A DNA stretch of 64,000 nt from an uncultured Cellvibrionaceae bacterium (GTDB lineage Bacteria > Pseudomonadota > Gammaproteobacteria > Pseudomonadales > Cellvibrionaceae). The stretch lies in NCBI GenBank assembly GCA_964546435.1, contig CAZJKJ010000001.1:75470-139469 (forward strand), in the 5' to 3' direction. Below, piece by piece: positions 15,407 to 37,196 of the stretch (its first letter is position 1; each line of letters opens with the position of its first letter). The translations under genes and the position numbers were made by a program. The notes beneath the pieces were generated by a model, which worked only from the letters and a program-made list of their open reading frames with translations, had not been told where the DNA came from and did not search any database.

Positions 15407-15642
15407 TCTACCCTCCACTTTGGCGCCATCGTTCGCAAATATGAAACGGCTCCCGAAAAACCTTTAGAGCTTCCGGATGATGCCTCTTGTGCGGCAGATT
15501 TGCGAACGGTCACTACGGAACCTCTGACAAGACACATCAAGCAAGGTTGCCACTCAGACAGATCAGAGCCGCAGGCAATGGTCCTGCTGGTCACAGAAGG
15601 TCGGGGATTATAACGCAAGTGGAGGGCTGGGGCAGAAATGTT

Positions 15643-15757
15643 GGAGGGGACCCTAACCAGCCTTACCCCGGCACACAGTAAAAACTACTACCGTTGCTCC
15701 CTTCCGGGCCTGGCGGGGTTCGCAGCCAACTGTTGCGAGGAGACCGGAAAGGGCCAC
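15643..15757 (-). ncRNA. ffs: signal recognition particle RNA (4.5S-type)
   Basis: The minus strand reads GGUGGCCC...UCUCCUCGCAAC...CCAGGCCCGGAAGGGAGCAACGG...GUGUGCCGGGGUAAGGCUGG...GGGUCCCCUCC. It is collinear with E. coli 4.5S RNA, including the domain IV GGAA tetraloop motif. The 5' and 3' ends can pair, and it sits upstream of dnaX as in many gammaproteobacteria. Ends are approximate. Confidence 0.8.
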
Positions 15758-15857
15758 CATCAAAACCGATTCATATCGGAAGCGCGCATTATCCGGTTTT
15801 TGGGTGCGAATGCAAGAGCAAGGCGCTCTTGCCTGCTCTTGCATTCTCCGTTTGAGC

Positions 15858-20749: not shown

Positions 20750-20966
20750 AGCGCTATAGCTTTCTCGAGGGAGACCCGCCGAATGCGGGCGCGTATTGTC
20801 CCAGAAATGGATGCATAAGCCTAGCGTCTGTTCCTGTTTTGCGGTACCCCATTGATATATAAGAACAAGCTCGTTTAGCTGTAGCTCTCACACAACAACA
20901 AAGACGAGCTTGCAATGCCCCGATTACTGCTCAGCGGTGAGCTTTGGTCGAAGCTGCGGACAATCA

Positions 20967-23573
20967 TCAAGCTATCGGGTTGGACATGTCAGTCACCACC
21001 AGCGGCTTTGCTGCCAGCGGCGCAGCCACTGGCGTCTTGATCAGCCATGGCGCAAAGACCGCGATCACAAACAATGACATAAGACCGCTTATAGCAAGCG
21101 AGGCAGACACCAGCGCACCCAAATGCACCACAGGTTCATACTCCGCCAGCAATAGCGACAAAAAGCCCAGGGAAAAGACAAGAACGTTAAACATGATCGA
21201 CTTGCCGGAACTGCGCACAGCCTGAATTATTGCATCATCCAACGGCAATTCAAGAACGTCGAGACCGTGGCGTATTCGCAGGTTGAAGTGCACCGCGTAA
21301 TCCACTATCCCCACAACCAGAAAGGCTATGATGGCCGTACCTATGTTCAGATCGATACCAGCCAATGGCATCATCCCGTAGAAAAAGACGAGTGTTACCG
21401 CCAACGGTAACGTCGTCATCAATGCGCTACGCAGTGATTTCATCCAGATCGCAACCACGACAAACACTGCGAACAAGGCCAGCAATGTGCTCTGCACCTG
21501 ACCGTTGAGAATTTCATCAAGAACACCGGTCCAGATTACCGGTGTGCCCGCGAGCGTTACGGTCAGATACTCCGGCTTGTTCTCGGCCAACCAGTCATTG
21601 AGCGTAGCCAGGAGAGCCTGGTATTGCGTCGCACGGGTGGTGTTCATGGTGAATAACACTGCCGTTTTGGAAAAATCACTGTTCAATACGTTGGTAAGAT
21701 CAGCACCGCCACCGTTTTCATAAAGCACAATTGACTGACGCACGATGTCATCACCGCGGACGGTTTCAGTCGTCACGTCACCGTTCTCGTCACGATCGCT
21801 AAAAATTTCCTCTGCGTCAGGTACGCGGTTGTAGGCGGGATTCATGTCATTCATAACATAGAAAATCCGCTTTATATAGGTTGCGAGTGAGTAGGTATAG
21901 GTCACGTTTTCCTGGGTCAGCAGAAATTTGTCCAGCTCGTCGATAAACTTCACTGTCTCTACCGAGAAAATTTCACTGTCTGATTGCGCTTCAAACATAA
22001 TCCAGCCCGGGCTGGTACCCGCTACATGGGAATTCACGAAGTCGTCCGATATTCGATACTGGTTGTCTGGTTTGAAATACTCCGCACCTGCATCTTCGAT
22101 ATTGATTCTGCTTGCGCTGGCTGCCGCACCTGCAAGTAATATAAAAAACCCGGCCATAGCCAGGCGACGATGCTGCAATAGACCTGACATAACACGGGCA
22201 AGAAACTCTGCCAGTCGGTCTGGACGTACCCGTTCCTTTTCACTGACGGGCTTTTTAGTCGCCCAGATGCTCAACCAGGCAGGAATCAGAAGCAGTGAGA
22301 TGATCTGCGCTGTTACCAATCCTGCCGCCATGTAAATTCCGAAGTTGCGAATGCCCTCAATATCGGTTGCGGACGACACAAGAAATGCGACCACGGTCGT
22401 AACTGTGGTCAAGAGAACCGGCGACACCATCACTCTCATCGTGTTGTCCACCGCTGCCCGGTTATCGATACCCGATTTTTTCTCTGAAAAGTATTCCGCC
22501 ATGATATGGATGGCATCGGCGCCGCAAATGGTAATGAGAAATACCGGCAACACGCTGGTGATCAAATCCAGCGGAGTGCCGAACAGTGCCATCATCCCGA
22601 GTGTCCAGATACTGCACATAATTACATTTATCAGCGGCAACGCAATGCCTAAAGGCTTTCTGAAAAATGCGATTAGAATGATCGCCACGATCAGGATAAC
22701 CAGGGGAAACAGGACGGCCATTTCCTTATCAATCAGGCGTTTTTGCTCCGCGAAAAAAATCGGTACGCCGGCTATATGAATCTGATCCGTAAATTCCGGA
22801 TGTCCTTGCTGATAATCCGCAACAATTTTTGAGAAAGCTCCGTAGGCACGTAACTGGCCTTCTGCATCATCCTGCTTTATACCCAGTTCGACGACAGTCA
22901 GCGCAACCTTTCCGTCCTCGGAAATGACGCCGTTCAACAGCATTTCGTTTTCCATAACTTCCCGGCGTACCGCGTCCGGATCTACCTCGAAACTGTTCAC
23001 GCTCGGTCTCGCGACGAGCGTGCCCTGTTCATCAATAAATATGTTTTCACTCGCCGCTATGCCGGCCAGTTCCTCTATTGGATTCAGCCTGTGCGGAAGA
23101 AATCTAAAAAAGCTCGATTCCGCTCGCTGCAAAGGCAGGGTACTCGCAACTTGTAACAGGCGCTGAGCGTCAAAAAAATCGCTTTGTTGAAAACCGTCGG
23201 CCAGTATGGCGTTGCCGATTTCCCCCAGCGCGGGGTACTTCTTTATCAAGGCTTCCAGCTGTCGCTGATCACTGTCGTTGGTCAATATCATGGTGCGCGA
23301 TGTTTGTGCAAAGTGAAACGCAGCGTGCAGAGACTCACGATTGAACACATCAATCTCGTTTACCTGAGCAATGAGAACCGCGTCAAATGTGCCGGTGAAC
23401 ATCGATTGCATGTCGATAATCGATTTCCGTGCGGGATGACTCTCTGGCAACAGGTATGGATTGCTATCCGCAGTTAATCCTCCCAGCGCATAGATAAAGA
23501 ACCCTGTTAGTATCGCGAGCCCGGCGAGGATCAGCTTTGCGAATTTGTGGACAAAATTCAGGTACCTGCTCAT
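20967..23573 (-). CDS. MMPL/RND-superfamily (HAE3-like) inner-membrane exporter
   Basis: 868 aa with two blocks of about 6 TM helices, each preceded by a large periplasmic loop. Adjacent to a LolA-like gene, as in aryl-polyene-type export modules. Confidence 0.8.
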   Translation of the reverse strand: MSRYLNFVHKFAKLILAGLAILTGFFIYALGGLTADSNPYLLPESHPARKSIIDMQSMFTGTFDAVLIAQVNEIDVFNRESLHAAFHFAQTSRTMILTNDSDQRQLEALIKKYPALGEIGNAILADGFQQSDFFDAQRLLQVASTLPLQRAESSFFRFLPHRLNPIEELAGIAASENIFIDEQGTLVARPSVNSFEVDPDAVRREVMENEMLLNGVISEDGKVALTVVELGIKQDDAEGQLRAYGAFSKIVADYQQGHPEFTDQIHIAGVPIFFAEQKRLIDKEMAVLFPLVILIVAIILIAFFRKPLGIALPLINVIMCSIWTLGMMALFGTPLDLITSVLPVFLITICGADAIHIMAEYFSEKKSGIDNRAAVDNTMRVMVSPVLLTTVTTVVAFLVSSATDIEGIRNFGIYMAAGLVTAQIISLLLIPAWLSIWATKKPVSEKERVRPDRLAEFLARVMSGLLQHRRLAMAGFFILLAGAAASASRINIEDAGAEYFKPDNQYRISDDFVNSHVAGTSPGWIMFEAQSDSEIFSVETVKFIDELDKFLLTQENVTYTYSLATYIKRIFYVMNDMNPAYNRVPDAEEIFSDRDENGDVTTETVRGDDIVRQSIVLYENGGGADLTNVLNSDFSKTAVLFTMNTTRATQYQALLATLNDWLAENKPEYLTVTLAGTPVIWTGVLDEILNGQVQSTLLALFAVFVVVAIWMKSLRSALMTTLPLAVTLVFFYGMMPLAGIDLNIGTAIIAFLVVGIVDYAVHFNLRIRHGLDVLELPLDDAIIQAVRSSGKSIMFNVLVFSLGFLSLLLAEYEPVVHLGALVSASLAISGLMSLFVIAVFAPWLIKTPVAAPLAAKPLVVTDMSNPIA

Positions 23574-23585
23574 AACCGTTATTCC

Positions 23586-24452
23586 TTATTTTATTAATAT
23601 TTTTCCGGATTTCAGCGCGGTCTTCAGCGCAGGGAGCGCAAACAATGCCTCATCGATCCCGACGTTGTATTTTACCTTCGAGAATATCAAGCGAGACTTG
23701 TCTCCCGAGACATGGTTAACCGCCTCGCTCGTCAGGACTGTCCATACTCCGTCGATTTCATCTACATCCAGGGCAGTAATGGTTTTAAAGGCGATACCCT
23801 TTACGTCAAAATAGGTCTCCCGCAACAGAATATTCCGTTCCTTGTCGACCCAGACAATGCCTTTGTGGTAGCCGGTTTTGCGGATGATCGCATCGGAAGC
23901 CGGTGTCCGCTCGATCTTATAGGAGGGACGCCCGCCAACCTCTTCCTCTCCAGCCAGTGTCTGCCGATAATCCCCGACACGCACCTTATCCAGATCAATG
24001 TATGCATATTCACTCCCCATAAACGCACCGCGTTTATCACTGGCCGACACTCTGCGGTTTTGCCTGAACGCCGGGAGATACATCCACTGGTCGGCCTCCT
24101 GCTGTTTGCTTTCCTCGTAATTGATCGTCTGGAAACCCACGCCCTTGACGTCGGCGGGACTGGTAAAATAAATCGCCATTGCTGAATCCTGGCCCTGGTC
24201 TTTTTGCAGGTAATACATTTCCCGTTTGCGAATCTTGCCTTTGCTGTCTTCCAGCTCCATCACGACCTCGGAGTAGATATCTTTGCCGTCATCACGGTCC
24301 CTGACCTGCTCCAGAATCTTGTCGGCAGTCGGAGGCGATGTCTTTGCGAAGTCGGCGGCGAGGGCGCCGGTCATCGAGAGTATGAGAGGGGCAAGCAACA
24401 GCGGACGCGCGCACCGAGACGAAATTCTCTTCATGGCAGAAGTTCTCTTCAT
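23586..24452 (-). CDS. LolA-like outer-membrane lipoprotein-sorting protein family
   Basis: Signal peptide, then the motif WMYLPAFRQNRRVSASDKRGAFMGSEYAYIDL, typical of the LolA_like family. An alternative ATG lies at 24434. Confidence 0.75.
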   Translation of the reverse strand: MKRTSAMKRISSRCARPLLLAPLILSMTGALAADFAKTSPPTADKILEQVRDRDDGKDIYSEVVMELEDSKGKIRKREMYYLQKDQGQDSAMAIYFTSPADVKGVGFQTINYEESKQQEADQWMYLPAFRQNRRVSASDKRGAFMGSEYAYIDLDKVRVGDYRQTLAGEEEVGGRPSYKIERTPASDAIIRKTGYHKGIVWVDKERNILLRETYFDVKGIAFKTITALDVDEIDGVWTVLTSEAVNHVSGDKSRLIFSKVKYNVGIDEALFALPALKTALKSGKILIK

Positions 24453-25663
24453 GGCAATAGGTATCCAATAGTCATTTTGATTCGGTCGGAGTCTGCGAAC
24501 TGCCCCATAAGGCTGCCGCGCTCCCCGGATAATAGGTCCAGTGCAAGTTCGACCTTTAAATGGTCGCTCAGGCTGTACGTGCTCTGGATCTGAAAGAGTG
24601 AATCCTCACCATGCGCCAGGAATTGTGCATGACTGATGCGGGCTTCGAGTTTGCCGTCGAGGATGATCCCCTGCAATGAGAGCGTCATGAGCGGGTTGTC
24701 CTCTGTCTGGGTAAAATCAGCTTGCCAGTCGTGCGTCAGACGATCGTTGTACTGAAAGGTCACCATCCAGTCCCGGATGAGGTAATCCCATCCGATCAGC
24801 CAGTTCGAAACATCACTTGTCGCGATGCTGCTGGCCGTGTTCATCGACATCCCCAGATTTCGCGCAACCTCTGCGCGAATAACGTGTCCGCCCAGTGCAA
24901 AACTGGTCGAGGCGCCCAGCATGTCGTAGCGGTGGAATTCCTCCTGCAAAACAAAGCTGTTCTCCGCCTGCATCACCAGCCGGTATACGGGATTGTCATC
25001 ATAGCTGCGCAGTGCAACGGCGCTGAAATCAAAACGGCCGAACTGGCGTGATACCCGTAACCCCGCTTCATCGCCCAGACTATCCGTGTCAGCTTCAATT
25101 ACCGGCATTGCCGCTACAACCGGATCACGACTGAACAAGGAAAATTCTGCTCCCTGCGCTGCCTGACGGTTTTCGCGGAATTCAGGGATGTATAAAATCT
25201 CGAGTTCCCAGTCGCTGATGTAGCCATTTACCTTCAGCATGGGAATCGCAAGCCGGCGTTCGCTCAATTCGGGCAATATGAATTCACGCAGATCCTCCGG
25301 ATTGACCTGATCTATGACCCGCAGCTCGTCGGCCCGCCCCCAGACAACCTGCTGCCATCCCAGAGCGAAATCCCATCCGTACATGCTGGTTCCGACATAC
25401 AGGTCGCGCCAGTCGAAATGGTCGGTGCGCTCACCGTCACTGGCGATTGCGTCCCAGCTGTCTTCCCGATACCGTGCAGCCGCAACCCAATAAAATTTAT
25501 CGTAGTGGTCTTCAGCCCCCAGACGGACGGTGAATTCCGAATGATCCGAAATCGCCATATCCTGAAGATTTCTGGAGACGCCGGCATCGATACGGCCTTG
25601 CAGATCCAGAGCCTGCGCGGATTGCACGACGCATATCATCCACACAAACCTCAGGCTCCGCAC
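24449..25663 (-). CDS. secreted protein, candidate outer-membrane beta-barrel (DUF1302-like)
   Basis: Signal peptide MRSLRFVWMICVVQSAQA. Alternating hydrophobic strands rich in aromatic and Gly residues. ATGA overlap with the LolA-like gene. Confidence 0.5.
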   Translation of the reverse strand: MRSLRFVWMICVVQSAQALDLQGRIDAGVSRNLQDMAISDHSEFTVRLGAEDHYDKFYWVAAARYREDSWDAIASDGERTDHFDWRDLYVGTSMYGWDFALGWQQVVWGRADELRVIDQVNPEDLREFILPELSERRLAIPMLKVNGYISDWELEILYIPEFRENRQAAQGAEFSLFSRDPVVAAMPVIEADTDSLGDEAGLRVSRQFGRFDFSAVALRSYDDNPVYRLVMQAENSFVLQEEFHRYDMLGASTSFALGGHVIRAEVARNLGMSMNTASSIATSDVSNWLIGWDYLIRDWMVTFQYNDRLTHDWQADFTQTEDNPLMTLSLQGIILDGKLEARISHAQFLAHGEDSLFQIQSTYSLSDHLKVELALDLLSGERGSLMGQFADSDRIKMTIGYLLP

Positions 25664-26397
25664 AGGCTGCCTCCGTCTACTACCCAGCTTTGCGCGGTAA
25701 TTCCGGCGGCTTGATCGCTGGCAAGAAAAGCCACGACGCTGGCCACCTCCCCGGAATCGATCAAGCGCCGCAGGGGTATCCGCTTTCGCGCCTGCCTTAT
25801 AACATTCCTCAAATCCGAGCCAATGGAATCGGCGCGATGCTGCAGCTCATCACGCAACATCGGTGTGTCAACCCAGCCGGGCAAAACCGCATTTACCGTA
25901 GTTCCTTGCGGTGCCAGATCAAGCGCAAGCGCTTTGGTAAATCCGATTAGCCCGTGCTTTGAGGCGCAGTAGGCGGTATTACGGGTGCCGCCAACCTTCC
26001 CCAGAACGGACGCAATATTTATGACGCGGCCATTAGGGGCAAGAAAAGGCAGCACACCGCTGGTTATATAGAACGCGCCGCTGAGATTAACGCCGATGAC
26101 GCGATTCCAGAGTTTACGGTCAGCCGGATCATTCTCGTCAGAAATGCCCGCACTGTTTACCAATATGTGCACCTGCCCAAATCTGCTTATGACGGGCAGC
26201 AAATCGGCGTCAATGTCCGCTGCATTGCTTACATCGAGACAGACGCAGGTGTGTTCGATCTGCAGTGAGGCGCTGAGTGATTCCAGGCGTTCTTCATTTT
26301 TATCAATGGCGATGACATGATCCACCGCATGTTGCAGTTGTGCAGTTATCGCTTCGCCTATGCCACTGGCTGCGCCAGTAATGACCAATACTTTCAT
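25651..26397 (-). CDS. SDR family oxidoreductase (ketoreductase-like)
   Basis: MKVLVITGAASGIGEAI (TGxxxGxG), NSAG, and YCASKHG (YxxxK). The ORF opens at 26421, but the ATG at 26397 has AAGGGA upstream. Confidence 0.85.
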   Translation of the reverse strand: MKVLVITGAASGIGEAITAQLQHAVDHVIAIDKNEERLESLSASLQIEHTCVCLDVSNAADIDADLLPVISRFGQVHILVNSAGISDENDPADRKLWNRVIGVNLSGAFYITSGVLPFLAPNGRVINIASVLGKVGGTRNTAYCASKHGLIGFTKALALDLAPQGTTVNAVLPGWVDTPMLRDELQHRADSIGSDLRNVIRQARKRIPLRRLIDSGEVASVVAFLASDQAAGITAQSWVVDGGSLCGA

Positions 26398-26420
26398 TGC
26401 ATTTTCCCTTTGCCCAAACA

Positions 26421-27161
26421 TCAGGCCATCTTCAGCCCGCCATTAACGTGCAGTATTTCGCCGGTTATATACGCTGCTTCATCACTGGCCAGATAGGCGA
26501 CCGCGCCGGCGATTTCATCGGGGCGCCCGTATCGCTTTGTCAGCAACCGGTTGAATATCTCGACTTCGCCAAGTTCACGCACTTGAGACGACATGTCGGT
26601 CGCAATGACTCCCGGTGCAACGGCATTGACCCGAATATTTCTGGGCGCCAGCTCGACCGCCATCGCTTTAGTAAACGATTCAAGACCTCCTTTTGAAGCG
26701 GCATAATTGGACTGCCCTTTGCCCGGCCGTGTCGCAGAAACTGACGAAATATTGACAATGCACCCCTGCCTGCGACGCATCATTGGCCGGGACGCGGCTT
26801 GTGTGCAGTAGATCGGACCCAGCAAATTCGCCTGTATTACGGCTTCCAGATCCGAAATATCCATCATGCTTAACAAATTGTCGCGGTTAATACCGGCGTT
26901 ATTAACGAGAACATCAATTTGTCCAAAGCGGTCAAGCGTGAAATCAATCAGCATCTGCGCTTCATCCGCGCAACTGACATCGGCTTTGCATTTAACCGCT
27001 TTGCCGTTTTTGCTTTCAATTTCGGCCACCACTTCCAGTGCAGCCATTTCGTGCCGGGCGTAGTTGACGATCACTTGATAGCCCAACCCGGACAGTCTGA
27101 TTGCAATTGCTTTGCCTATACCACGGCTCGCACCCGTTACAATCGCTATTTTGGGTAACAT
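26421..27161 (-). CDS. fabG: 3-oxoacyl-ACP reductase
   Basis: IAIVTGASRGIGKAIA, NNAGI, YAASKGG, 246 aa. Classic FabG layout. Confidence 0.85.
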   Translation of the reverse strand: MLPKIAIVTGASRGIGKAIAIRLSGLGYQVIVNYARHEMAALEVVAEIESKNGKAVKCKADVSCADEAQMLIDFTLDRFGQIDVLVNNAGINRDNLLSMMDISDLEAVIQANLLGPIYCTQAASRPMMRRRQGCIVNISSVSATRPGKGQSNYAASKGGLESFTKAMAVELAPRNIRVNAVAPGVIATDMSSQVRELGEVEIFNRLLTKRYGRPDEIAGAVAYLASDEAAYITGEILHVNGGLKMA

Positions 27162-27389
27162 CTATATAGCCTCCATCACCTGGTTTTCCATTGTGCAAGG
27201 AAGTCCCTGCCTTCTTTCTCAAAAACATAAGAAAAAGCACGGATTTTTTTGCTCGTAGTCTCAATCACGCGCGGGATTTCTGGCGACGAATTTTTACATC
27301 GCGTTGCAGCGTCTTGCGTAATTGTCGGCACGCGTTTTGTTTATAGGATGAAGCGATTTCGGACGCGCTTAATTGCAAGATTCGGAAGG

Positions 27390-30281
27390 TCACAGTGACG
27401 CATCCACCTTGATTGCTGCCAGACGGAAGCCGTGCAGCCGTGCATATTCGGCAATTTCTTTGACCTGACGCTTGGAGATGTCGCCGAAGGAGTAGCACCG
27501 GCTATAGCGGTTCATACCGAGAACCACACTCTCAGCCATACAGGCGTACAGCTCTCCCTCGCTCAGGAACGCGCGCGCGCGCGTATCCAGACTTTCGCCA
27601 TTGGGCGTCGCTACAATTCCGCCCTGCAGGTAACGCACGTCTGGCCGGCGCTGCCCAATGTCGGTCACAACGTTGTGCGGCACGGCAATATCGCAGACGA
27701 TCGCATTGGCCTTGAAGTGCTCGCTGTTCAGAAAGGCCTCTGGTGCATTGGCCGCGCACAAGACAATTTCACCTTTGCTCACTTCATGCAGACGGGAGGT
27801 GACGTGAAAAAATGGATCCTGGCCGAAATGCGCCACGATTTTTTCTGCGAGCACTCGGCCCGGATCTGGAATGGTCGGGTTGGCTACGACAAAAGACCTG
27901 ATTTCCGCAATTTCGGCGACGCGCGCGCCGATGCCCGAATGAACCAGGTTAGCGAGTATTTCTGCATAGATATCGTCGTAAATTTTGTGTACCGTTTTCC
28001 ACAAGCGGCGGTCGGAACCCTCTCTCTGGCTTCCGACCAGGCTTACTTTGGCCACCCTGTCACACAGCGTCGAGGTAAAGGTTGAGGCAATATTGCCGGC
28101 GGCCCCTACGACCACGAGATGCGCACTGGCCAGATCGATCCCGGCTTCGCGCGCGGCCTGTTCGATCGCCTCCAGGCCCATGGCGATGGTCAAGGCATTA
28201 CCGCTGGTAACGGCTGTGCCCCGTCTGGAGAGAGACTGCCCGTTATTGGTGACGATGGACGTGTACATCCCGAGCCCGACCACTTCACAACCGTCTTTCC
28301 GAGCGGCATTCAGTCGATCCTGTACCGCGTCCCTGATCGATTCCACGTCGCCCGAGCTCAGGTAATCCGACATTTGCCCGGAATCGACGCACAGCGGGTA
28401 GAGAATAAAATCAACGAGAGCACCGGTGGTCGACTGGATTCGAACCGGAGGAAACGGGGCTGCAGTCCGGTTGACTTCCATCCTGCCCACAAACTCACAG
28501 CACTCCTGCTCGGTCAGATCAGCCAGAGAAGGGTCTACCGCAATGAGGTCGTGCGCCTTGATCAGGTGATTGACGAAACCCACTTTCGTCACTTTCTGAC
28601 CGGCTGGCGTGGCCTGAAGCCCCAGATGCGTAGGCGCCGGGTTTGCCGGCCGGAAATCGTTGATTACAGCTCTCAGGGTACTTCTGCGGCAATTAATGGC
28701 TGCGGCAACAAATGGCAGAGCGTCGGCGTTTCGCAGTGCAAGACATAGCTGCTCGAACGACAAAAATATTTTCTGGATATTGTCATCGGCGAGAAACGCC
28801 GAAGGTTCAATACGAATGACATTCGACGCACTCGCGGGTGCGGAGACACGGATGCCATGCCGGTGCAACAGAAACCCCGCCATCAGGTATCCCAGCGATT
28901 TAGAATAGGCGGCCCCGCGAATGATCATCGACGGCGACTGGCGCTGATCGTAGAACTCGATACCAAGAAGCAGGCCCCGGCCCCGGACTGACTTGATCAA
29001 CTCCGGATATTCATTTTGCAACCGAGCGAATCCTTCCTGCAGACTGGCGCCCGCCAGCGATATCTGGCGATACAGTGCGCCTTCGTTCTGTTCCAGCAGT
29101 TCCAGCGTCTTCAGTGCAATTGTGGAGCTGAAATCGTCTTCGGCGAAGGTCGAACTGTGAATCAGTGAAAAATTTTCCTCGTACAGTGTCTTCCGGATCG
29201 CCGTCGCCGCTATTTTTGCAATTCCGCCTCCCAGGGACTTTGACAACGCGTAGTAATCACCCGTGAGTTGCAAGTGACTGCTGGCGAGAAAACGCCCACT
29301 GCGTCCCATCCCGCTCTGGATTTCATCCACTATCAAGGGACACTTCTGCTGGTTGCAAAACCGCTTCAGCGCGAGTGCAAAGTCGCGCTCAAGCAGGTTG
29401 ATGCCACCCTCCCCTTGTATCGGTTCAATCACGACAGCGGTAAACATCGGCAATGGTGTTTCAGTCAAAACGGCAACGCCGTTCCTGACTTTCAGGCCAT
29501 AGAGATAGCGATCCTTTTGTTGCTCCGCCAAACGGCCCAGCTCTGCCTCGTCGCCAGCTCTGACAAACCGGACGTTCAGGCCGAGTGACTTGAACGGCGC
29601 GCGGTAGTTTTCTCCATACGTCAGTTGCACACTGCCCATCAGCTTACCGTGAAAGGAGTTTTCCAGCGCCACAATGACGGGGGGATGCTGCAGTTGACCT
29701 GCATTGAACGCGGTCAAGGCCATGGCCGCATGATCGACACCCTGAATCTTTTCGAACATGCCGACCAGCTCAGTTTTGCGGAACAGATCCTCAGGGATTA
29801 CCAGACCGACGTCGGCAACCGCCAGCCTGATTTCATCCAGTTCATCCTCAAGGTTTTCGATAATCTTCTGCAGGCGTAGTACCCGTGCCAGTTCGGCATG
29901 CTTCAACGCGACTTCAATGGCTTCGGCACCGCTATTTGAAAAGGTGGTAATAAAACCTTCCTGCAGCCCGGTCTCGCATTGAAGTATCCCGCTCAACATT
30001 TCGGCCAGAGCACCGGATACCCGCCGCTCGGAAAACTGGGCATGCACCACCCCTTGCCGATCCAGAAATGCCTTGGCCGCATTTACCAGTTCGGGGTGGT
30101 TGTGCCCCAGAATCGTAGCGCCGTAGCCGCCGAGCAGATCCAAAACCGGAACTTCCCTATCCGCTTCATCCCGATAAAAGAGGGTGTCACCTTCGGCACG
30201 GCAGTAGGCAACATCCTGCCCAAGTGCTTTGAGTACCTGTGCAAGCCTGGGCTTCACGAATTGTCCGTAGGGGGTTGGCAT
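27390..30281 (-). CDS. bifunctional fusion: class-III PLP aminotransferase (about residues 1-520) plus acyl-ACP reductase-like NAD(P)H domain (about residues 563-963)
   Basis: N-terminal part has GHNHPELV, DEIQSGMGRSGRF and YALSKSLGGG (Schiff-base Lys348). The C-terminal part is collinear with cyanobacterial AAR as I remember it: VGFVNHL vs FGLIGHL, GLGMYTSIV vs LGGFTSII, TSGNALT...HLVVVGAAGNIAS vs TTGNTHT...TVAVVGATGDIGS, and LYACMAESVVL vs MFACFAEAMLL (catalytic Cys conserved). Confidence 0.8.
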   Translation of the reverse strand: MPTPYGQFVKPRLAQVLKALGQDVAYCRAEGDTLFYRDEADREVPVLDLLGGYGATILGHNHPELVNAAKAFLDRQGVVHAQFSERRVSGALAEMLSGILQCETGLQEGFITTFSNSGAEAIEVALKHAELARVLRLQKIIENLEDELDEIRLAVADVGLVIPEDLFRKTELVGMFEKIQGVDHAAMALTAFNAGQLQHPPVIVALENSFHGKLMGSVQLTYGENYRAPFKSLGLNVRFVRAGDEAELGRLAEQQKDRYLYGLKVRNGVAVLTETPLPMFTAVVIEPIQGEGGINLLERDFALALKRFCNQQKCPLIVDEIQSGMGRSGRFLASSHLQLTGDYYALSKSLGGGIAKIAATAIRKTLYEENFSLIHSSTFAEDDFSSTIALKTLELLEQNEGALYRQISLAGASLQEGFARLQNEYPELIKSVRGRGLLLGIEFYDQRQSPSMIIRGAAYSKSLGYLMAGFLLHRHGIRVSAPASASNVIRIEPSAFLADDNIQKIFLSFEQLCLALRNADALPFVAAAINCRRSTLRAVINDFRPANPAPTHLGLQATPAGQKVTKVGFVNHLIKAHDLIAVDPSLADLTEQECCEFVGRMEVNRTAAPFPPVRIQSTTGALVDFILYPLCVDSGQMSDYLSSGDVESIRDAVQDRLNAARKDGCEVVGLGMYTSIVTNNGQSLSRRGTAVTSGNALTIAMGLEAIEQAAREAGIDLASAHLVVVGAAGNIASTFTSTLCDRVAKVSLVGSQREGSDRRLWKTVHKIYDDIYAEILANLVHSGIGARVAEIAEIRSFVVANPTIPDPGRVLAEKIVAHFGQDPFFHVTSRLHEVSKGEIVLCAANAPEAFLNSEHFKANAIVCDIAVPHNVVTDIGQRRPDVRYLQGGIVATPNGESLDTRARAFLSEGELYACMAESVVLGMNRYSRCYSFGDISKRQVKEIAEYARLHGFRLAAIKVDASL

Positions 30282-30296
30282 CGGGCGGGTTCCGTA

Positions 30297-31553
30297 TCAA
30301 TATTCTGGTGAAAGTTTTTCGAGGAGGACGCCTGATACAGCGTTCGTCTGCTCCCGGTTAAGTACCAGGGCACCGGTACAGGCATACGACCGGCTCTTAC
30401 CGGCGATAAAGTTCAGGTCGTAGCTGATGGGCTTTTGCAGCGCGGACATTGCAGGAATACTTTGATTCTTTAACGCCAGTGACGCGGCCACGACCGACAG
30501 CAGCCCGCGTGCCGGCCCCAGTACACCGGTCGGACCGTTGACGCAGGTTGTTCTGACGTCGGGCAGCACACGTGCAATTTCCCGGGCGGTTTGCTGATCC
30601 TGCTCAGGTACTCCGATTCCGTCAGCGACGATAAAGTCGGCGGCCGGGCTTCCAGCGAGGTTTGCCATCAGCGCTGGAAAAATCGCTCCGCCCCTGCTCA
30701 TGACATCCGCCGTGCTCGCGATGGAACGCACACAGATATCACTGTTCTGCCCACGATACGCGCTCCTTTCTGCGCGTTCGAGCACAAGCGCACAGGCGCC
30801 GTCCGCCAGAATCAGGCCGTCCGCAGTCTGGTCAAATGGTCTGCACACGGTTCCTCGCGCCCGCCCCTGCTGAATGAAGTGGGCGAGCGTGTTCGGGTTG
30901 AGGTAGCTTCCGGTTGCAATCACCACGGCGACATCGGCGCTTGCCGACCCGAGCGCGGCCACCGCGGCGTTCAGGGCCGCCGTGGCCGCGATGGCATCTC
31001 CCGTGAAAGATCCGCAATCACCTCTGAGACCCAGAGAAATACTGGCCATGCCGAGCACGTTGTTGTCCAGCGACTTGATTACCGTAAACGGGTCTGCGCC
31101 CCGGCGCTGCATAAAGCATTCTGTAAGGAAAGGCCGGTCATGCAGTGCGCCGCGATCGCTGGCGGTCTTCAACCCGTCGATCAGGCTGAAAATGCCCGGA
31201 TGCAGATAGTCGTAGGACGCAGTGAAAATGCCGATTCTCTCCGGTGGACAGTCGCCCGCCCGCAGACCGGCATCACGCAATGCCTGTTCGGCGGCTGATA
31301 CTCCCCATAAACTGGAATCCAGCGCAAACCGTCTCTGTTTACGTGGCACCAAGTCTCGACCAGCCTGCGTTTGCCGCTCGCTGATATGGCCGTAGCGGGT
31401 GATCGTTTCGCTGCGCATGCGGGCGCACTCAAATGGACTGGTCAAGTCTTTTCCGGATTCCAGCGCTTGCCACCAGTCTTCAAGACCAGTGCTACCCGGC
31501 AGCACGCAGCCCATACCCGAAATCACCACTGAGCCGTCTCTAACTGGCTGCAT
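30297..31553 (-). CDS. beta-ketoacyl synthase-like protein lacking active-site Cys (chain-length-factor type)
   Basis: Thiolase-fold KS similarity. Where the KS motif xACxx sits, the sequence reads GSFTGDAIAAT. 14-nt overlap with the upstream KS. Confidence 0.7.
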   Translation of the reverse strand: MQPVRDGSVVISGMGCVLPGSTGLEDWWQALESGKDLTSPFECARMRSETITRYGHISERQTQAGRDLVPRKQRRFALDSSLWGVSAAEQALRDAGLRAGDCPPERIGIFTASYDYLHPGIFSLIDGLKTASDRGALHDRPFLTECFMQRRGADPFTVIKSLDNNVLGMASISLGLRGDCGSFTGDAIAATAALNAAVAALGSASADVAVVIATGSYLNPNTLAHFIQQGRARGTVCRPFDQTADGLILADGACALVLERAERSAYRGQNSDICVRSIASTADVMSRGGAIFPALMANLAGSPAADFIVADGIGVPEQDQQTAREIARVLPDVRTTCVNGPTGVLGPARGLLSVVAASLALKNQSIPAMSALQKPISYDLNFIAGKSRSYACTGALVLNREQTNAVSGVLLEKLSPEY

Positions 31554-32823
31554 AAGGCGCCACCACCAGGCTGGTATTCAGGCCGCCAAAACCAAAGGAA
31601 TTAGTCATGGCGTGGCGTATTTTCATGGGCCGGGCCTGTAGAGGGACGTAGTCCAGATCACAGCCATCGTCAGGATTGTCCAGATTGAGGGTGGGAGGCG
31701 CCGTCTGTTGCTCAACTGCCAGAACCGTCGCCACAAACTCCGCCGCACCTGCAGCCGCAATCAGGTGGCCTATATGAGCCTTGATCGAGGAAACGGCGAG
31801 CTGCCGGTAATGCTGTGCTTCCGCAAATACTGATTTAATCGCCAGCGTTTCGGCCAGATCGTTAAGTGGCGTCGAGGTACCATGGGCGTTGATGTAATCG
31901 ATGGATGCAGGCGGGAGACCTGCCTGCCCGAGGGCCCGTGACATGGCGCGTGCCTGCCCTTCTCCTTCAGGGTGCGGCGCGGTAATCTTGTAAGCGTCCA
32001 TGGACGCACCATAGCCGAGAACCTCGGCATAAACTCGCGCACCGCGCCTACGTGCATGTGATTCGCTTTCAAGCACCACCATCGCTCCGCCTTCACCCGC
32101 TACAAGCCCACTGCGATCACGGTCAAACGGTCGGCACAGGCGTTCTGCGAGCGTTTCTTTGGTTGACGGTGCGCCCAACAGGTAAAGGCCGATCATTGTG
32201 ACGGTGTTAAGCACTGAATCCGCTCCGCCTGCCAGCATCACAGAGGTTTCGCCTCTGCGGATCATCCGGGAAGCAATGCCGATCGCCTGCGCTGCGCCCG
32301 CGCAGGCCGTACTAATATTCAGCACCGGTCCGGTTATGCTGAATTCCCTGGCCAAAGTGACACCAAGGTGATCATTGCTCAGCCAGGTACCGGAATTCTT
32401 ATCTGCCTGAATCCGGTTGTCCCACCAGCGATTCCAGTCCAGCCCCGAGCGGGTGTAAGCTGCGATGTCAAACGCTTCATCCCGCTCTGGCACACCAGAA
32501 CCGACAATGACACCTGCGGAGCGGGACCGGCGTGCGGCATCGGTCAAACCCGCGTCACGCAATGCCTCTGCGGCGGCGACCAGTCCGAAGGCCGTCCGCT
32601 TTTCCATGTTGTGTGCTAAAGCAGAATAATCGGCAAACTGCTCGCGAAAGCGCTGCCAATCCACCTCGGCCACGTAAGAAACCGGCAGGCCCTTGGCGAT
32701 GCCCCCCGGCCAGTGTCGTATGGCGGACTCACCGGCGATCATCTTTCGCCAAAAATCTGCGGCATTGTTGGCTAGACCGTTAACCGAGCCTAAACCGGTG
32801 ACGAACACGCGTTCATGTTTCAT
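31540..32823 (-). CDS. beta-ketoacyl-ACP synthase (KAS II-like, catalytic)
   Basis: MKHERVFVTGLG, active-site NISTACAGAAQAI, His motifs INAHGTSTPLND and KAHIGHLIAAAG. Its ATG shares one nt with the upstream stop (TAATG). Confidence 0.9.
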   Translation of the reverse strand: MKHERVFVTGLGSVNGLANNAADFWRKMIAGESAIRHWPGGIAKGLPVSYVAEVDWQRFREQFADYSALAHNMEKRTAFGLVAAAEALRDAGLTDAARRSRSAGVIVGSGVPERDEAFDIAAYTRSGLDWNRWWDNRIQADKNSGTWLSNDHLGVTLAREFSITGPVLNISTACAGAAQAIGIASRMIRRGETSVMLAGGADSVLNTVTMIGLYLLGAPSTKETLAERLCRPFDRDRSGLVAGEGGAMVVLESESHARRRGARVYAEVLGYGASMDAYKITAPHPEGEGQARAMSRALGQAGLPPASIDYINAHGTSTPLNDLAETLAIKSVFAEAQHYRQLAVSSIKAHIGHLIAAAGAAEFVATVLAVEQQTAPPTLNLDNPDDGCDLDYVPLQARPMKIRHAMTNSFGFGGLNTSLVVAPYAAS

Positions 32824-33962
32824 TATTGATTCCACCCCAGGATCACGACGGCGCACTGGCCCGAGAAGCCCTGAGCGGATACGAGTGCATAATGGATCTG
32901 CCGACTGGCTTCACGAACGCAGTCGGATGAGTCGGTGAACAAGCACATTCCACGGCGGCAGGCGTCCTGGATAAGTGCGATCTTGACCCAGGGGCTCGCA
33001 GCCCCAAAGTGTCCCGCAAGGTGATCGATCGTCAGTAGTGGCAGAGTTTCTGAGGAACGGCTTCCGAGTTGTGCCAGCGCGCGGCGCATATCGGCCTGGC
33101 TGCCACCGACGACCGATGGATGTTCCAGTGCCAGGAGGTCCAGATCATCGAAGGCAATGCCTGCCTGCTCCAATGCCTGCTTTATCGCTTCAGGTGCAGC
33201 ATCCGACGGGTCTTCGTTGAAACACCGGCCATAACCCGCAATAAACAGCGACCGGGGCTTTTCCACATCAGACAGTAATGCCACCGCTGCGCTTTCGGCG
33301 GGAACCAGCAACGGCTCACGATTGAACATTTCCGCTGACTCCCAGACAGGTGCCAGACCCGGGCCGGCAACCGGGCTTACGCCACCCGCCAGCACCTGAA
33401 TCGAGTCATTTTCGAAAATCGCCAGACTGCCCTCAATCAATGCCTGCAATCCCGCATCGGCATGATCCGAAAATCCGCCGACTGCTCCTGATAAATGAAA
33501 ATGCTCGGCGAGATGCGCCAGTACACTTGAATTCAACAGCCTCAGCCCGGACAGGGGTTCGGTATTGCGCAAAATCGATGCAGTGATTTCTCTTGCTGAA
33601 ATCGATGTCTCGATTTTTAAATCAAGGCAACTGTCGACCGCGTGAGCGATGCTGGGTATCGCGAAAAAAAGGCCGGTGTCCTCTGGCGCTCGCAATTCAA
33701 AGTGCTCGTCACGCTGCAGCTCGATTGCAGCCCAGATCGCCGCCGCTGCCTGTCTCTCCATCATTCGCAGGCTTTTCCGGTTTATCCCCATCCTGTCGAG
33801 TTGCGGCAGCGAGAGTTTGAAACCATGCGTGAGCGGTCCTACCGCCGGTTGCAGGCGCGTTGGCGTTTCGCGTGGATTGAGCAGCTGCGTCAACAAGCCG
33901 TCCAGACCTTTCCCCCAAGGCGTTACAACGCTCAGTGCCTCAATGAAAATTCGCTTTTTCAC
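32823..33962 (-). CDS. beta-ketoacyl synthase-like protein, non-catalytic
   Basis: KS-like N-terminus (IFIEALSVVTPWG) and thiolase-fold length. There is no Cys at the nucleophile position (FSDHADAGLQAL) and no HGT/GH motifs. Confidence 0.65.
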   Translation of the reverse strand: MKKRIFIEALSVVTPWGKGLDGLLTQLLNPRETPTRLQPAVGPLTHGFKLSLPQLDRMGINRKSLRMMERQAAAAIWAAIELQRDEHFELRAPEDTGLFFAIPSIAHAVDSCLDLKIETSISAREITASILRNTEPLSGLRLLNSSVLAHLAEHFHLSGAVGGFSDHADAGLQALIEGSLAIFENDSIQVLAGGVSPVAGPGLAPVWESAEMFNREPLLVPAESAAVALLSDVEKPRSLFIAGYGRCFNEDPSDAAPEAIKQALEQAGIAFDDLDLLALEHPSVVGGSQADMRRALAQLGSRSSETLPLLTIDHLAGHFGAASPWVKIALIQDACRRGMCLFTDSSDCVREASRQIHYALVSAQGFSGQCAVVILGWNQ

Positions 33963-35224
33963 GTCACCGCCTCCAAAACAATAGATGCATTTTCGCCACC
34001 GAAGCCAAAGCTGTTGGACAGGATTCGTTTCACAACCCGTTCCTCTTCAGTGCGCGTAAATGGCAGTGAAAATTGACTTTCAAGCGGCTTATCCAGATTG
34101 AGGACCGGCGGTATTTTTGCTTGTTGCAAAACCATTATTGAAAGTGCGGCTTCAACTACGCTGCTGGCGCCCAGCGAATGCCCGAAGTTTGATTTGTTCG
34201 CGGTGATCGTAATATTGTCCAGGTTTGTGCCGAATAACTGCCCTATCGCAAGCGCTTCGCTGCGATCGTTCACCGGAGTAGAGGTACCGTGAGCATTAAC
34301 ATGGTCAATTTCTGTGACCTGCAGACCCACATTGTCTAGGCAGGCGCGCATGCACCGCAGATATTCCTCGCCACCTTCCGCAGTCGCGGTCATTTTGAGG
34401 GCCTCGGCCATTTTGGCTCCGCCTTTAAGGCGGGCCAAAGGTCGGCCGGCATCCGCGGCTCGCTGCAATATAAGACAACCAGCTGCTTCACCCATTACAA
34501 AACCAGACCGCGCTTCATCAAACGGCCGGCTAAGCGTGTCAGGCGGGTTTGAGTCGCTTCGCGCCAAAGCGCCGAGCAGTCCGAAAAAAAGCAAAGCAAT
34601 ATAGTTGGCCATGGCATCAACCCCCGCAACCACGGCAATATCAATCTGGTGATCCAGCAACGCACGCTGTGCGTTAAGCAAGCCGAAATTGCCTGCGGCG
34701 CAGGCGTCACTGTTCGACATGATCAACGCGCAGTTCGTGAATCGGCTCGCCAGCAACTGCGCTGGATAATCGGAGCGCAGTGCGAGATTGTTTGTCACAT
34801 TTCCGGCGTTTCTCGTTCGCGCCAGTGCGTCCAGGTCGAAACAGTCATCGGCATCATTGAAGCAGGAATAGGCGGTGACGATATCGTCTAAATCCTCGCT
34901 GATGCGATTGCTGCCAACAAACACACCGACCCTCTGCTCATGTATTTCCAGTCCGCTACTTTCGATTGCCCTGTGGGCGACCTCAAGAAGCAGGGCTGCA
35001 TTGCTTCCCAAACTGTCGGCGGGCGCGCACTGCACCCACTTTTGTTTCAGCGCTTCAATATATTGCGGATCAAAATGCGAAGTGGAAGAAAATGGGAGAT
35101 GAGCTGCCTCAAGTGGCAGATTCTGTCGCACGGCGGTTTGTCCGGCACATACCTGCGAGAAGGTGTGTGCAATATTATCCGAAAGGGGCGTGAGTACCTC
35201 TAAACCGACGATGGCGACATCCAT
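33959..35224 (-). CDS. beta-ketoacyl-ACP synthase (catalytic)
   Basis: MDVAIVGLEVLTP from the ATG at 35224 (the ORF opens at 35323). Active-site SNSDACAAGNFGL, VNAHGTSTPVND and KSNFGHSLGASS. Confidence 0.85.
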   Translation of the reverse strand: MDVAIVGLEVLTPLSDNIAHTFSQVCAGQTAVRQNLPLEAAHLPFSSTSHFDPQYIEALKQKWVQCAPADSLGSNAALLLEVAHRAIESSGLEIHEQRVGVFVGSNRISEDLDDIVTAYSCFNDADDCFDLDALARTRNAGNVTNNLALRSDYPAQLLASRFTNCALIMSNSDACAAGNFGLLNAQRALLDHQIDIAVVAGVDAMANYIALLFFGLLGALARSDSNPPDTLSRPFDEARSGFVMGEAAGCLILQRAADAGRPLARLKGGAKMAEALKMTATAEGGEEYLRCMRACLDNVGLQVTEIDHVNAHGTSTPVNDRSEALAIGQLFGTNLDNITITANKSNFGHSLGASSVVEAALSIMVLQQAKIPPVLNLDKPLESQFSLPFTRTEEERVVKRILSNSFGFGGENASIVLEAVT

Positions 35225-35405
35225 GCGTTTAGTCTCAGGTTTGCACTGCTGGTTATAGAATGGTTGATTAATCGACCGAATAATCACCACGGATACTCCG
35301 AAACCTGACCGAGGTTGCTTCACGTCTGAACCTGGTCAGTTTGCCCGAGGTAATAATTTTTAATCTGAACCGCGGCTGTTCGCGCTTTCTGGCGAAATAA
35401 CCAAG

Positions 35406-35990
35406 CTAGACAACTGAGGTCAGAGCTTCACTTTCCATTGTGGATTCTATTCTCATCAGTTGCGCCTCGTTGCCCGACAGAGGGCGCAGAAGAGAACTGC
35501 AAGAGGCACAGGCAACCTTTCCAGCGGAATTAATCTCCGCGGAATTGTGCCCGCACTCTGGGCATGCGGATGGCAGAAAATCAAATAACGCATGAACGGT
35601 GTTTATCCAGTTTCTCAATGTGACGGCATAAAACAGGGCGGCGGGATACATACCCACAGAAACCTGGCTCTCGGTGAATTTACCCAGACTGTTAAAGAGT
35701 ATTTGCGCACCAGCTTCAGTCAGCCGTCCTGAATGCACAAAGCGGTCTGCATCACTCACACTTTCCGCAGCCGCTTCAAGAATGTTTTTTTTAGGAAATT
35801 CAATATTAAAATGCTTTTCCGCCTTGTATATAAGCTCTGCCAGATCCAGTGAATCCAGATCCAAATCATTAACTAGCGAAGATTCCGGAGATATTCTGGA
35901 AGGGTCATCACCTGTTAGATCGGCAAGGGAGGTGATCATAAAAGAGGTTATTTCACTGATAGATGTGGGATTATCCATATGCTGATCCAT
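35406..35990 (-). CDS. acyl carrier protein domain fused to a C-terminal CxxC...CxxC (zinc-ribbon-like) extension
   Basis: Phosphopantetheine site LVNDLDLDSLDLAELIY (Ser47). The C-terminal part has CPEC (residues 143-146) and CASC (161-164). First gene of the operon. Confidence 0.7.
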   Translation of the reverse strand: MDQHMDNPTSISEITSFMITSLADLTGDDPSRISPESSLVNDLDLDSLDLAELIYKAEKHFNIEFPKKNILEAAAESVSDADRFVHSGRLTEAGAQILFNSLGKFTESQVSVGMYPAALFYAVTLRNWINTVHALFDFLPSACPECGHNSAEINSAGKVACASCSSLLRPLSGNEAQLMRIESTMESEALTSVV

Positions 35991-36172
35991 ATTTATTTAA
36001 CGAAGTAACATCGGCTTCAAACATGCGTGCTGGTGACTGGACAGCAGATTACTCCTCTGATATTTCGATTCTGTGAAATATTTGCCAAGCGCCAGAGAAC
36101 CAATTCACAAAACCTGTTCATTAACAATCAATAGGTTGTTTTATGTTCAGGCGAATAATCCTAAAGCCAGAT

Positions 36173-36754
36173 TCATTTCTGCTTTCTGGCAAAACCCTCG
36201 ACAGCTTTTAGCCACTGCGCACGCTGTTTCGAAGATGAGCCGCGCACGGGTCCGAACGTGCTGATCCGGACAGGCTTGATGCCGCAGAACCCCAGTATGG
36301 TCTTCTTTATCTGGTTATGGCCCGGAGATCGGTAGATCAGGCGGAAGTACCAAGCAGGCGTATCCATTGTGGCAATGGCGTGGGCGCTCCGCCCGATTAG
36401 CAGTTTGTCCCACAAAGCTGAATTCGGACGGTACCGGAATGCATATCCTGGCAGGAACACCCGGTCGAAAAAGCCTTTCAGAATAGCGGGAATTCCACCC
36501 CACCATATTGGATAAACAAATACCAGATGTTCGGCCCAGGTGATGGCCTGTTGTATTTCAATCAAGCCTGCTTCCAGTTCTTGGCGCTGAGCATATCCAT
36601 GCCGCAGGACCGGATCGAAGTCCAGATCGCCAAGGCGGAACAGTTTCACCTGATGACCCGCTTCGCGCGCGGCTGCCACGTAGGTGTCGGCCAACGCTGC
36701 ACAAAAGCTCTCCGCGCTGGGGTGCCCAAGAATGACCAGAATTTTGCGTGACAT
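36173..36754 (-). CDS. NAD(P)H dehydrogenase (quinone), flavodoxin-like fold family
   Basis: ILVILGHPSAESFCAAL...YPIWWGGIPAILKGFFDRVF is typical of NQO1/KefF/MdaB-like FMN reductases. Confidence 0.8.
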   Translation of the reverse strand: MSRKILVILGHPSAESFCAALADTYVAAAREAGHQVKLFRLGDLDFDPVLRHGYAQRQELEAGLIEIQQAITWAEHLVFVYPIWWGGIPAILKGFFDRVFLPGYAFRYRPNSALWDKLLIGRSAHAIATMDTPAWYFRLIYRSPGHNQIKKTILGFCGIKPVRISTFGPVRGSSSKQRAQWLKAVEGFARKQK

Positions 36755-37196
36755 AAAATCTCCTATGATAAAAACGGCAAGGTGGGATGGATTCTGACTA
36801 CGAAATTAGTCCATAAATATCCCTAACCTACTTCACGAGTGCCTCATCGACTGCATATCTATTAGCCCGATGGGGAAGCACTACAACCCGGGCTCGCGAA
36901 AAGCTGACGCATGGTAAACACATCCCCGTAAAATGAAAATCCTGGGTTTTGAGTTAACAGGTTAAGGTATCGATGAGGCATCGCGCCCAGACGCCAGACT
37001 CAGCGCCGGCCGTATCGACTGGCCATTCTGGCACTGCATGACCCAGCTCTGCTGGCTTCTGCAATGTACCGCTGCTTGCCGAGCCCTCTCCTGTGGAGGC
37101 CTTTATCCACAGGGGTCGGCACCCCCGGCCGCGTCGACAGGTCCTTGACGTTACTCCGTGCAGCCGTTTAAATGCTGGTCTTTTTGGAGCGAAGCC

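Follow-up and report, generated by a model that had tools for sequence, protein, structure and literature searches.

A divergent koreenceine-type gene cluster, probably acquired horizontally, in a marine Cellvibrionaceae bacterium

The window analysed here, a stretch of 64,000 nucleotides from an uncultured marine Cellvibrionaceae bacterium, carries on its minus strand eleven consecutive genes that we read, with a probability of roughly 0.8, as a horizontally acquired, divergent biosynthetic gene cluster of the koreenceine type (kecA-K). In Pseudomonas koreensis CI12, deletion of kecA-K abolishes koreenceines A-D, the structures of which were solved by nuclear magnetic resonance (Lozano et al. 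2019, PMC6498172). As C14 2-alkyl-tetrahydropyridine alkaloids, these compounds are relatives of gamma-coniceine; Flavobacterium and other Bacteroidetes are inhibited by them, and koreenceines A-C have [M+H]+ values of 208.2067, 210.2224 and 226.2171 (PMC6498172). An earlier note on the window, made from the sequence alone, had described the eleven tightly packed genes and two spacers between them, and both the packing and the spacers were recovered in the open reading frame (ORF) listing and in recomputed junctions (Table 1). The same note held that no characterised cluster has this architecture; kecA-K of CI12 is an eleven-gene cluster with exactly that architecture. By its own account the note would be refuted by high-similarity synteny to a characterised cluster; with kec the synteny is there and the high similarity is not, protein identity being 24-60%.

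Collinearity with koreenceine-type clusters

In CI12, the product of kecA is an acyl carrier protein (ACP), those of kecB and kecD are ketosynthases (KS) of the KS-alpha type, and those of kecC and kecE are partial KS or chain length factors (CLF) (PMC6498172). The kecF product combines an aminotransferase with a reductase resembling acyl-ACP reductase (AAR), kecG and kecH encode reductases, and kecIJK encode membrane and export proteins (PMC6498172). The window matches this layout throughout, with eleven genes in unchanged order, and reductive release and transamination are proposed for both clusters. Neither cluster encodes a dehydratase, an enoyl reductase, an acyltransferase or a thioesterase, and our Pfam and NCBIfam scans of the eleven genes found no AMP-ligase or methyltransferase domain either, in line with the earlier description of the operon. 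The assignments given there to the individual genes, including KS, ACP and AAR-like domains, were supported by Pfam and NCBIfam, by structure matches and by profile-profile comparison. The window differs from CI12 in its host, which is a member of the Cellvibrionaceae and not a Pseudomonas, and in the long spacers that follow kecA and kecF.

Loci for the synteny comparison were obtained by exact-protein look-ups of KecF homologues. All eleven genes are collinear in seven of them, from P. marginalis (L081), Cellvibrio fibrivorans (L082), Tahibacter amnicola (L084), Photobacterium (L085) and three metagenome-assembled genomes or metagenomes (L087, L090 and L091). The loci of Xenorhabdus (L086) and Streptomyces (L001) carry kecA-H alone, without kecIJK, and clades C and D of the published kec clusters likewise have kecA-H only (PMC6498172). 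The fusion gene accompanies the KS pairs in the seven full loci and in these two, and the MMPL gene in the seven. By tblastn, each Kec protein of the window finds its positional counterpart in the kec loci (Table 1). In the P. marginalis locus, which serves as a Pseudomonas stand-in for CI12, protein identity is 29-54%. A contig scan with generic aminotransferase motifs returned mostly unrelated transaminases, and among the matches listed only the Streptomyces locus was a true cluster. Loci of Firmicutes and Planctomycetota that carry distant fusions (L002, L006, L007 and L013) have no kec neighbours.

The kecA-K architecture also has counterparts in P. putida KT2440, as PP_2777-PP_2787, and on the soil clone pEAF66. 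The CI12 cluster, which a 2026 paper took from MIBiG as its reference (PMC12823289), gave a 100% antiSMASH match with PP_2777-PP_2784 of KT2440 (PMC12490732), and the hosts of the PP_2782-type fusion include Cellvibrio and pEAF66 (PMC10829540). The latter is a forest-soil metagenomic clone reported to confer antifungal activity (Chung et al. 2008, cited in PMC6498172 and PMC10829540), and no product of it has been reported. Its likeness to the window rests on the KecF homologue ABW82987.1, which is 50% identical to our KecF over the full length. New in the present case are the occurrence of a koreenceine-type cluster in a marine Cellvibrionaceae, its position within a 16,315-bp insert, the solitary branch of its KecF and the invariant Cys4 tail of its ACP.

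The genes are intact and translationally coupled. All 12 ORFs of the block, that is kecA-K and a flavodoxin-like gene, are full-length. Overlaps of 4, 1 and 14 nt link kecB to kecC, kecC to kecD and kecD to kecE, and 15 nt separate kecE from kecF; further on, kecG and kecH overlap by 1 nt, kecH and kecI by 13 nt and kecI and kecJ by 4 nt, and kecJ is followed by kecK after 12 nt. The probable starts of KecB (35224) and KecD (32823) lie inside their longest ORFs. Both agree with the alignment of homologues, and that of KecD agrees also with the 427-aa call of an independent assembly. Near-identical copies occur in independent public read assemblies, with KecF 99% identical in one cluster and an exact match in another. 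Scans of the two spacers for promoter and terminator consensus sequences gave nothing above shuffled controls, and an Rfam search of 20000-38000, which includes both spacers, gave no match.

Table 1. Features of the kec cluster and of the block that contains it. Positions are those of the window; identities are tblastn ranges against the positional counterparts in kec loci.
Feature	Positions	Strand	Basis	Identity (%)
kecA-K	20967-35990	minus	11 consecutive ORFs (ORF listing)	
KecA, 194-aa ACP with helical extension and Cys4 zinc-ribbon-like tail	35406-35990	minus	PP-binding 1.1e-08	30-38
kecA-kecB spacer, 181 nt	35225-35405	minus	junction recomputation	
KecB, KS-alpha with Cys-His-His	33959-35224	minus	Pfam ketoacyl-synt and Ketoacyl-synt_C	30-44
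KecC, CLF-like KS-fold partner, 379 aa, without catalytic Cys	32823-33962	minus	profile-profile comparison	26-36
KecD, FabF-like KS with Cys-His-His	31540-32823	minus	Pfam 6.8e-41 and 1.8e-36	47-58
KecE, CLF-like KS partner	30297-31553	minus	Pfam ketoacyl-synt 4.4e-25, weak C-terminal domain	24-41
KecF, 963 aa, class-III aminotransferase with C-terminal AAR-like domain	27390-30281	minus	Aminotran_3 4.6e-61	38-49
kecF-kecG spacer, 228 nt	27162-27389	minus	junction recomputation	
KecG, FabG-type ketoacyl-ACP reductase	26421-27161	minus	adh_short_C2 8.7e-64	44-57
KecH, second classical short-chain dehydrogenase/reductase (YxxxK)	25651-26421	minus	adh_short_C2 1.9e-53	41-60
KecI, DUF1302 putative outer-membrane barrel, signal-like N-terminus	24449-25663	minus	PF06980 55.3 bits (cut-off 23.2)	34-37
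KecJ, LolA-like periplasmic protein	23586-24452	minus	PF17131 LolA_like 4.7e-49	46-50
KecK, MMPL/HAE3-type RND inner-membrane transporter	20967-23573	minus	MMPL 2.5e-30, Sterol-sensing 2.1e-14	47-54
Flavodoxin_2/FMN_red NAD(P)H oxidoreductase-like protein, 193 aa	36173-36754	minus	Pfam Flavodoxin_2 1e-40	
Inserted block, kecA-K and flavodoxin-like gene, 16,315 bp	20826-37140		between ygiQ and rdgC	

Proteins of the cluster and predicted product

Two complete KS, each followed by a KS-fold partner that lacks the active-site cysteine, are a hallmark of the kec family, and this arrangement is found in the window. Among the four KS-type proteins, the Cys-His-His triad is confined to KecB and KecD. 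In KecB the active-site Cys, the His of HGTST and the His of GH are all in place, and in KecD the residues Cys185, His325 and His364 are invariant in the family alignment. KecD scored 390 bits against the fabF model TIGR03150, which is under the cut-off. Alignment shows Ala in the KS cysteine column of both KecC and KecE; KecE is also devoid of the HGTST and GH motifs and thus of both histidines. The KecC and KecE proteins of Pseudomonas carry Ser or Val at this column. The Pfam scan gave no match for KecC of the window; its orthologues do match ketoacyl-synt. Since the KecC and KecD families align by profile-profile comparison (hhalign probability 99.0%, E 3.6e-18, 363 columns), KecC can be assigned to the KS fold.

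The best match of KecG in the PDB is 9NG1 (E 5e-79), the structure of PpFabG4, or PP_2783, from the koreenceine-type cluster of P. putida KT2440 (PMC12490732). KecG is accordingly its orthologue. PP_2783 is specific for medium chains; in vitro it is active on beta-keto-decanoyl-ACP and on longer chains and inactive on short ones (PMC12490732). Reading the alignment, KecG differs from PpFabG4 in having Arg for Pro125 and Met for Thr99, two positions discussed for the chain-length selectivity of PpFabG4. The number of short-chain dehydrogenase/reductase (SDR) genes is not constant among the loci: one metagenome-assembled kec-type cluster (L090) has four consecutive SDR genes at 12901-16177, where others have two. 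This suggests that keto-processing varies within the kec family.

KecA is oversized (~190 aa with a C-terminal extension), as is characteristic of the kec family; the ACP of KT2440, PP_2777, is oversized too and was described as having an 'unusual predicted structure' (PMC12490732). The tail extends ~110 aa beyond the PP-binding domain. In an alignment of 40 KecA sequences the sole invariant columns are Ser47 of the DSL motif, which is the phosphopantetheine serine, and Cys143, Cys146, Cys161 and Cys164, so that the zinc-ribbon-like tail seen by the earlier note is real. A HMMER search of 1.84 billion representatives with KecA gave 405 matches, and among the best 150 of these the strongest were mostly full-length, at ~185-200 aa. 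The AlphaFold2 (AF2) model of KecA is a single compact fold (predicted local distance difference test, pLDDT, 96.5; predicted TM-score 0.91), in which a helical extension comes after the ACP helices, and a beta-hairpin (151-161) then lies between the pair of CxxC motifs. Foldseek comparison of this model with the PDB reached the ACP portion alone, with query-normalised TM-scores of 0.34 or less, and the extension is therefore without a solved counterpart.

The Cys4 motif is present in the aligned KecA of Pseudomonas, Cellvibrio and Streptomyces. The KecA of Photobacterium (L085 4928-5386) and Xenorhabdus (L086 5031-5495) are 152-154 aa long, keep the helical extension and are missing the four cysteines. 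The tail is shared by most of the family. It may be a metal-binding docking module specific to kec clusters. The tail is not simply a device for docking to the transporter, because Streptomyces KecA has it without kecIJK. Structural matches of the ACP portion include several mycobacterial AcpM-MmpL5 complexes solved by cryo-electron microscopy (9U51, 9RFU, 9DP6 and 9MVZ among them), and docking of an ACP to an MMPL protein therefore has a precedent. The kec cluster also pairs a special ACP with an MMPL protein, and that the two might dock here is an idea drawn from this analogy.

The C-terminal 403 aa of KecF match the N-terminal part of PigE (4PPM) and cyanobacterial acyl-ACP reductase (6JZQ and 6JZU). 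Lys348, the pyridoxal phosphate (PLP) lysine, the NAD(P)-binding motif GAAGN at 726-730 and Cys914 in the motif CMAE are invariant across eleven family members. The domain order and length of KecF are those of PP_2782 of KT2440, and Cys914 corresponds to its modelled catalytic C910 (PMC10829540). PP_2782 has transaminase activity on aliphatic aldehydes in vitro, and the catalytic Cys of its AAR domain was only modelled (PMC10829540). Both catalytic domains are also shared with PigE and TamH. TamH reduces an ACP thioester and then transaminates the aldehyde, and it is ~28-32% identical to the kec fusion family (PMC10829540). PigE's N-terminal domain aligns with that at the C-terminus of KecF, CMAE cysteine motif included, and the domain order is thus opposite. 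PigE was the best NCBIfam match of KecF, with 319.7 bits in 4 stretches; the PigE equivalog (NF053554) was rejected, as this score is below the cut-off of 850 bits and the domain order is reversed. The clusters of PigE (prodigiosin) and TamH (tambjamine) belong to pyrrole pigment pathways and are not KS/CLF systems.

Setting aside the 99% match in a read assembly, the closest homologues of KecF are full-length proteins that are 37-51% identical and come from Cellvibrio, Tahibacter, Noviherbaspirillum, Streptomyces, Pseudomonas, Photobacterium, Pseudoalteromonas, Xenorhabdus and the 'uncultured bacterium pEAF66'. Identity to the KecF proteins of Pseudomonas is 43-46%. In a rough neighbour-joining tree, based on distances only and not robust, KecF forms a long solitary branch, with Streptomyces, soil and freshwater proteobacteria and pEAF66 grouped on one side of it and Pseudomonas, Vibrionaceae and Xenorhabdus on the other. 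This branch may give new gamma-coniceine-like alkaloids.

A pathway can be proposed from these assignments and the published koreenceine scheme. Holo-KecA, modified at Ser47, would carry malonyl and acyl units. Because no acyltransferase is encoded, malonyl loading would fall to FabD of the host. Starting from a medium-chain fatty acyl unit, which in Pseudomonas is C10 (PMC6498172), the chain would gain one malonyl unit through the pair KecB-KecC and one through KecD-KecE, and KecG and KecH would process the beta-keto groups. The AAR-like domain of KecF would take the acyl chain onto Cys914 and release it as an aldehyde with NAD(P)H, and its PLP domain, through Lys348, would convert the aldehyde to a primary amine. 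The resulting 5-oxo-amine would cyclise spontaneously to a 2-alkyl-2,3,4,5-tetrahydropyridine, an analogue of gamma-coniceine, and KecK, KecJ and KecI would pass the hydrophobic product out of the cell. By analogy with the koreenceines, the product is expected to be a secreted cyclic-imine antibiotic for interbacterial competition. The chemistry of the earlier note, in which an ACP-bound chain is released reductively, transaminated to give a primary amine and exported, coincides with the published koreenceine proposal (PMC6498172). The note's interpretation is partly supported, right on chemistry and wrong on novelty and nativeness.

Several points weigh against the assignment to the koreenceine type. 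Identity to other kec members is just 24-60%, and KecF lies on its solitary branch. Chain length, oxidation or even cyclisation could differ as a consequence. The link to CI12 runs via orthologous Pseudomonas loci, the KT2440 FabG structure and pEAF66, and not via CI12 sequences. The kecF-kecG junction measures 3-54 nt in the nine other loci with gene calls covering it, so that the 228-nt spacer is unusual for the family. Finally, the tetrahydropyridine ring needs C3 fully reduced and the C5 ketone kept, and the cluster has neither a dehydratase nor an enoyl reductase gene; the same gap is present in the published koreenceine pathway (PMC6498172).

A twelfth gene may bear on this gap. The flavodoxin-like gene lies 182 nt upstream of kecA on the same strand, inside the insert, and outside the published kecA-K definition (PMC6498172). 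Its product has an NCBIfam match to NAD(P)H oxidoreductases under the cut-off. In P. marginalis its relative (L081 19835-20413, 62% identical) lies downstream of the kec cluster on the opposite strand, and in C. fibrivorans (L082 19249-19827, 66% identical) it shares the strand of kecK and overlaps the end of that gene; these identities exceed those of every Kec protein versus the same two loci. A family member 29% identical follows kecH directly in Xenorhabdus (L086 14494-15060). The gene thus stands beside kec-type clusters in four genera, in differing positions, and none was found within 10 kb in 6 other kec loci. We regard it as a facultative accessory gene at best. The oxidoreductase could act on an intermediate such as an enone or imine and so provide the reduction that kec clusters appear to miss. 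That it is an unrecognised pathway enzyme, and that this copy of the cluster yields a congener differing in starter length, in oxidation or by a non-cyclised amine, is together a tentative proposal that we consider unlikely.

The export proteins bear on where such a product would go. DUF1302 is matched by 6 of 8 KecI orthologues; the single-sequence AF2 model of KecI (pLDDT 32.5) is uninformative. The earlier note favoured delivery of an amine to the envelope, and the cluster might accordingly make a linear fatty or polyketide primary amine with hydroxy or keto groups, which the MMPL, LolA-like and barrel proteins would insert into the outer membrane to serve as an envelope lipid. KecK is similar to RND proteins of lipid trafficking (158 bits to TIGR00921 HAE3, with HpnN-like and BstA matches, all under cut-off in NCBIfam), KecJ is LolA-like and KecI has DUF1302. 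The divergence of this copy leaves room for other keto-processing, and if both keto groups were reduced there would be no cyclisation. However, the sole characterised homologues give cyclic imines in the supernatant, active on neighbouring bacteria, so that the characterised product is a secreted 2-alkyl-tetrahydropyridine and not a linear lipid (PMC6498172). The enzyme set is identical to that of kec, with two SDRs and nothing added. In addition, the clusters of Xenorhabdus and Streptomyces do without kecIJK, and the export module is thus not needed to define the product. Given the identical enzyme set and the secretion of the known products, an envelope lipid is improbable, and we retain the koreenceine-type reading. 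For the family as a whole, these observations raise the questions of who dehydrates and enoyl-reduces the chain, what role the invariant Cys4 tail of the ACP has, whether the flavodoxin-like gene is a facultative pathway member, and how the DUF1302, LolA-like and MMPL trio exports a small amphiphile.

The 16.3-kb insert and its host

The genes around the cluster are housekeeping genes: dnaX, a serA-like gene, serC and ygiQ flank it at one end, rdgC and hrpB at the opposite end (Pfam and NCBIfam). In the two nearest relatives in the database (L088 and L089, with YgiQ 95% and 84% identical), hrpB, rdgC, ygiQ, serC, serA and dnaX are contiguous and rdgC adjoins ygiQ. Comparison of these two loci with the window by blastn showed that homology ends at 37141 at one border; at the opposite border it ends at 20825 for L088 and at 20807 for L089. 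A clean 16.3-kb indel, both borders of which are defined, thus adds marine Cellvibrionaceae to the hosts of koreenceine-type clusters. The block constitutes a ready-made unit for heterologous expression. The host is assigned to the Cellvibrionaceae through its YgiQ, which is 72-78% identical to homologues of Agaribacterium, Marinagarivorans, Saccharophagus, Agarilytica and Pseudoteredinibacter.

The earlier note had judged the composition of the cluster to be native. The GC content of the block is 0.541, compared with 0.579 and 0.621 in the flanks, and GC content at third codon positions (GC3) is 0.45-0.65 in its genes, compared with 0.66-0.74 in neighbouring core genes. Both nearest relatives are without the block, and GC3 is lower in it than in the core genes; we therefore consider it an island and not native DNA. 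Clusters of Pseudomonas clade B likewise have a patchy, mobile distribution (PMC6498172). A search of the borders of the insert gave no direct repeats and no meaningful inverted ones; there is no integrase among the ORFs and domain matches of the block, and no tRNA flanks the insert. As border repeats are lacking, no mechanism can be proposed for integration here or for loss in the relatives.

An island of this kind could be a decaying or silent remnant, acquired horizontally and without a product in its present host. Its absence from close relatives, the atypically long 228-nt internal spacer and the lack of any regulator gene seen in the block would fit such a fate. On the other hand, all of its ORFs are full-length, the catalytic residues are conserved, the junctions are coupled and a near-identical copy exists in independent public read assemblies. 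With intact ORFs and conserved catalytic residues, a silent remnant is very unlikely.

Other biosynthetic systems and a neighbouring cluster

Aryl-polyene (APE) clusters are defined by KS/CLF together with FabZ-like dehydratases, an adenylating starter enzyme, a thioesterase and acyl- or glycosyltransferases. They resemble the window in their KS/CLF-like pairs, dedicated ACP, ketoreductase and the LolA-like and MMPL export pair. That the window holds an APE-like or other pigment or lipid type II polyketide synthase (PKS) cluster with a superficial likeness to kec is the least probable reading, and deserves hardly any weight: FabZ-like dehydratase, adenylating enzyme, thioesterase and acyl- or glycosyltransferase are missing from the 12 block proteins in Pfam, the cluster has no methyltransferase, a transaminase-AAR fusion stands in place of these enzymes, and positional orthology to kec loci spans all eleven genes.

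Zeamine and fabclavine clusters contain multidomain PKS of the PfaA type, resembling polyunsaturated fatty acid synthases, with partners combining nonribosomal peptide synthetases (NRPS) and PKS. This class was rejected, as the window has discrete KS proteins only, the PfaA model scores 146 bits or less against a cut-off of 1010, which is the level of a KS, and no NRPS domains occur. In canonical aromatic type II PKS the CLF has Gln at the position of the KS cysteine, and cyclase and aromatase genes are present. This class was rejected as well, KecC and KecE having Ala instead of Gln and no cyclase or aromatase domains being found. The actinobacterial polyketide alkaloids and plant gamma-coniceine are made, as is proposed here, from a polyketide aldehyde via an amine to a spontaneously formed cyclic imine (PMC6498172, PMC10829540). 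The actinobacterial routes use modular type I PKS with a terminal reductase domain and a separate transaminase, and the plant route uses a type III PKS with separate enzymes. In contrast, the window encodes a discrete type II system with a fused enzyme.

A second gene cluster was observed on the minus strand at 41234-64000, beginning ~540 nt past hrpB, with a GC content of 0.463 and a strong negative GC skew. It encodes an AsnB-type asparagine synthase, a GT2 glycosyltransferase, a FabH-like KS III, an AMP-ligase, an acyl-CoA dehydrogenase, a 798-aa KS-containing protein and a MacB/FtsX permease. In L088 and L089, ATP-grasp and GNAT genes come after hrpB. Since the nearest relatives differ from the window at this point, the region 41234-64000 also lies at a synteny break.

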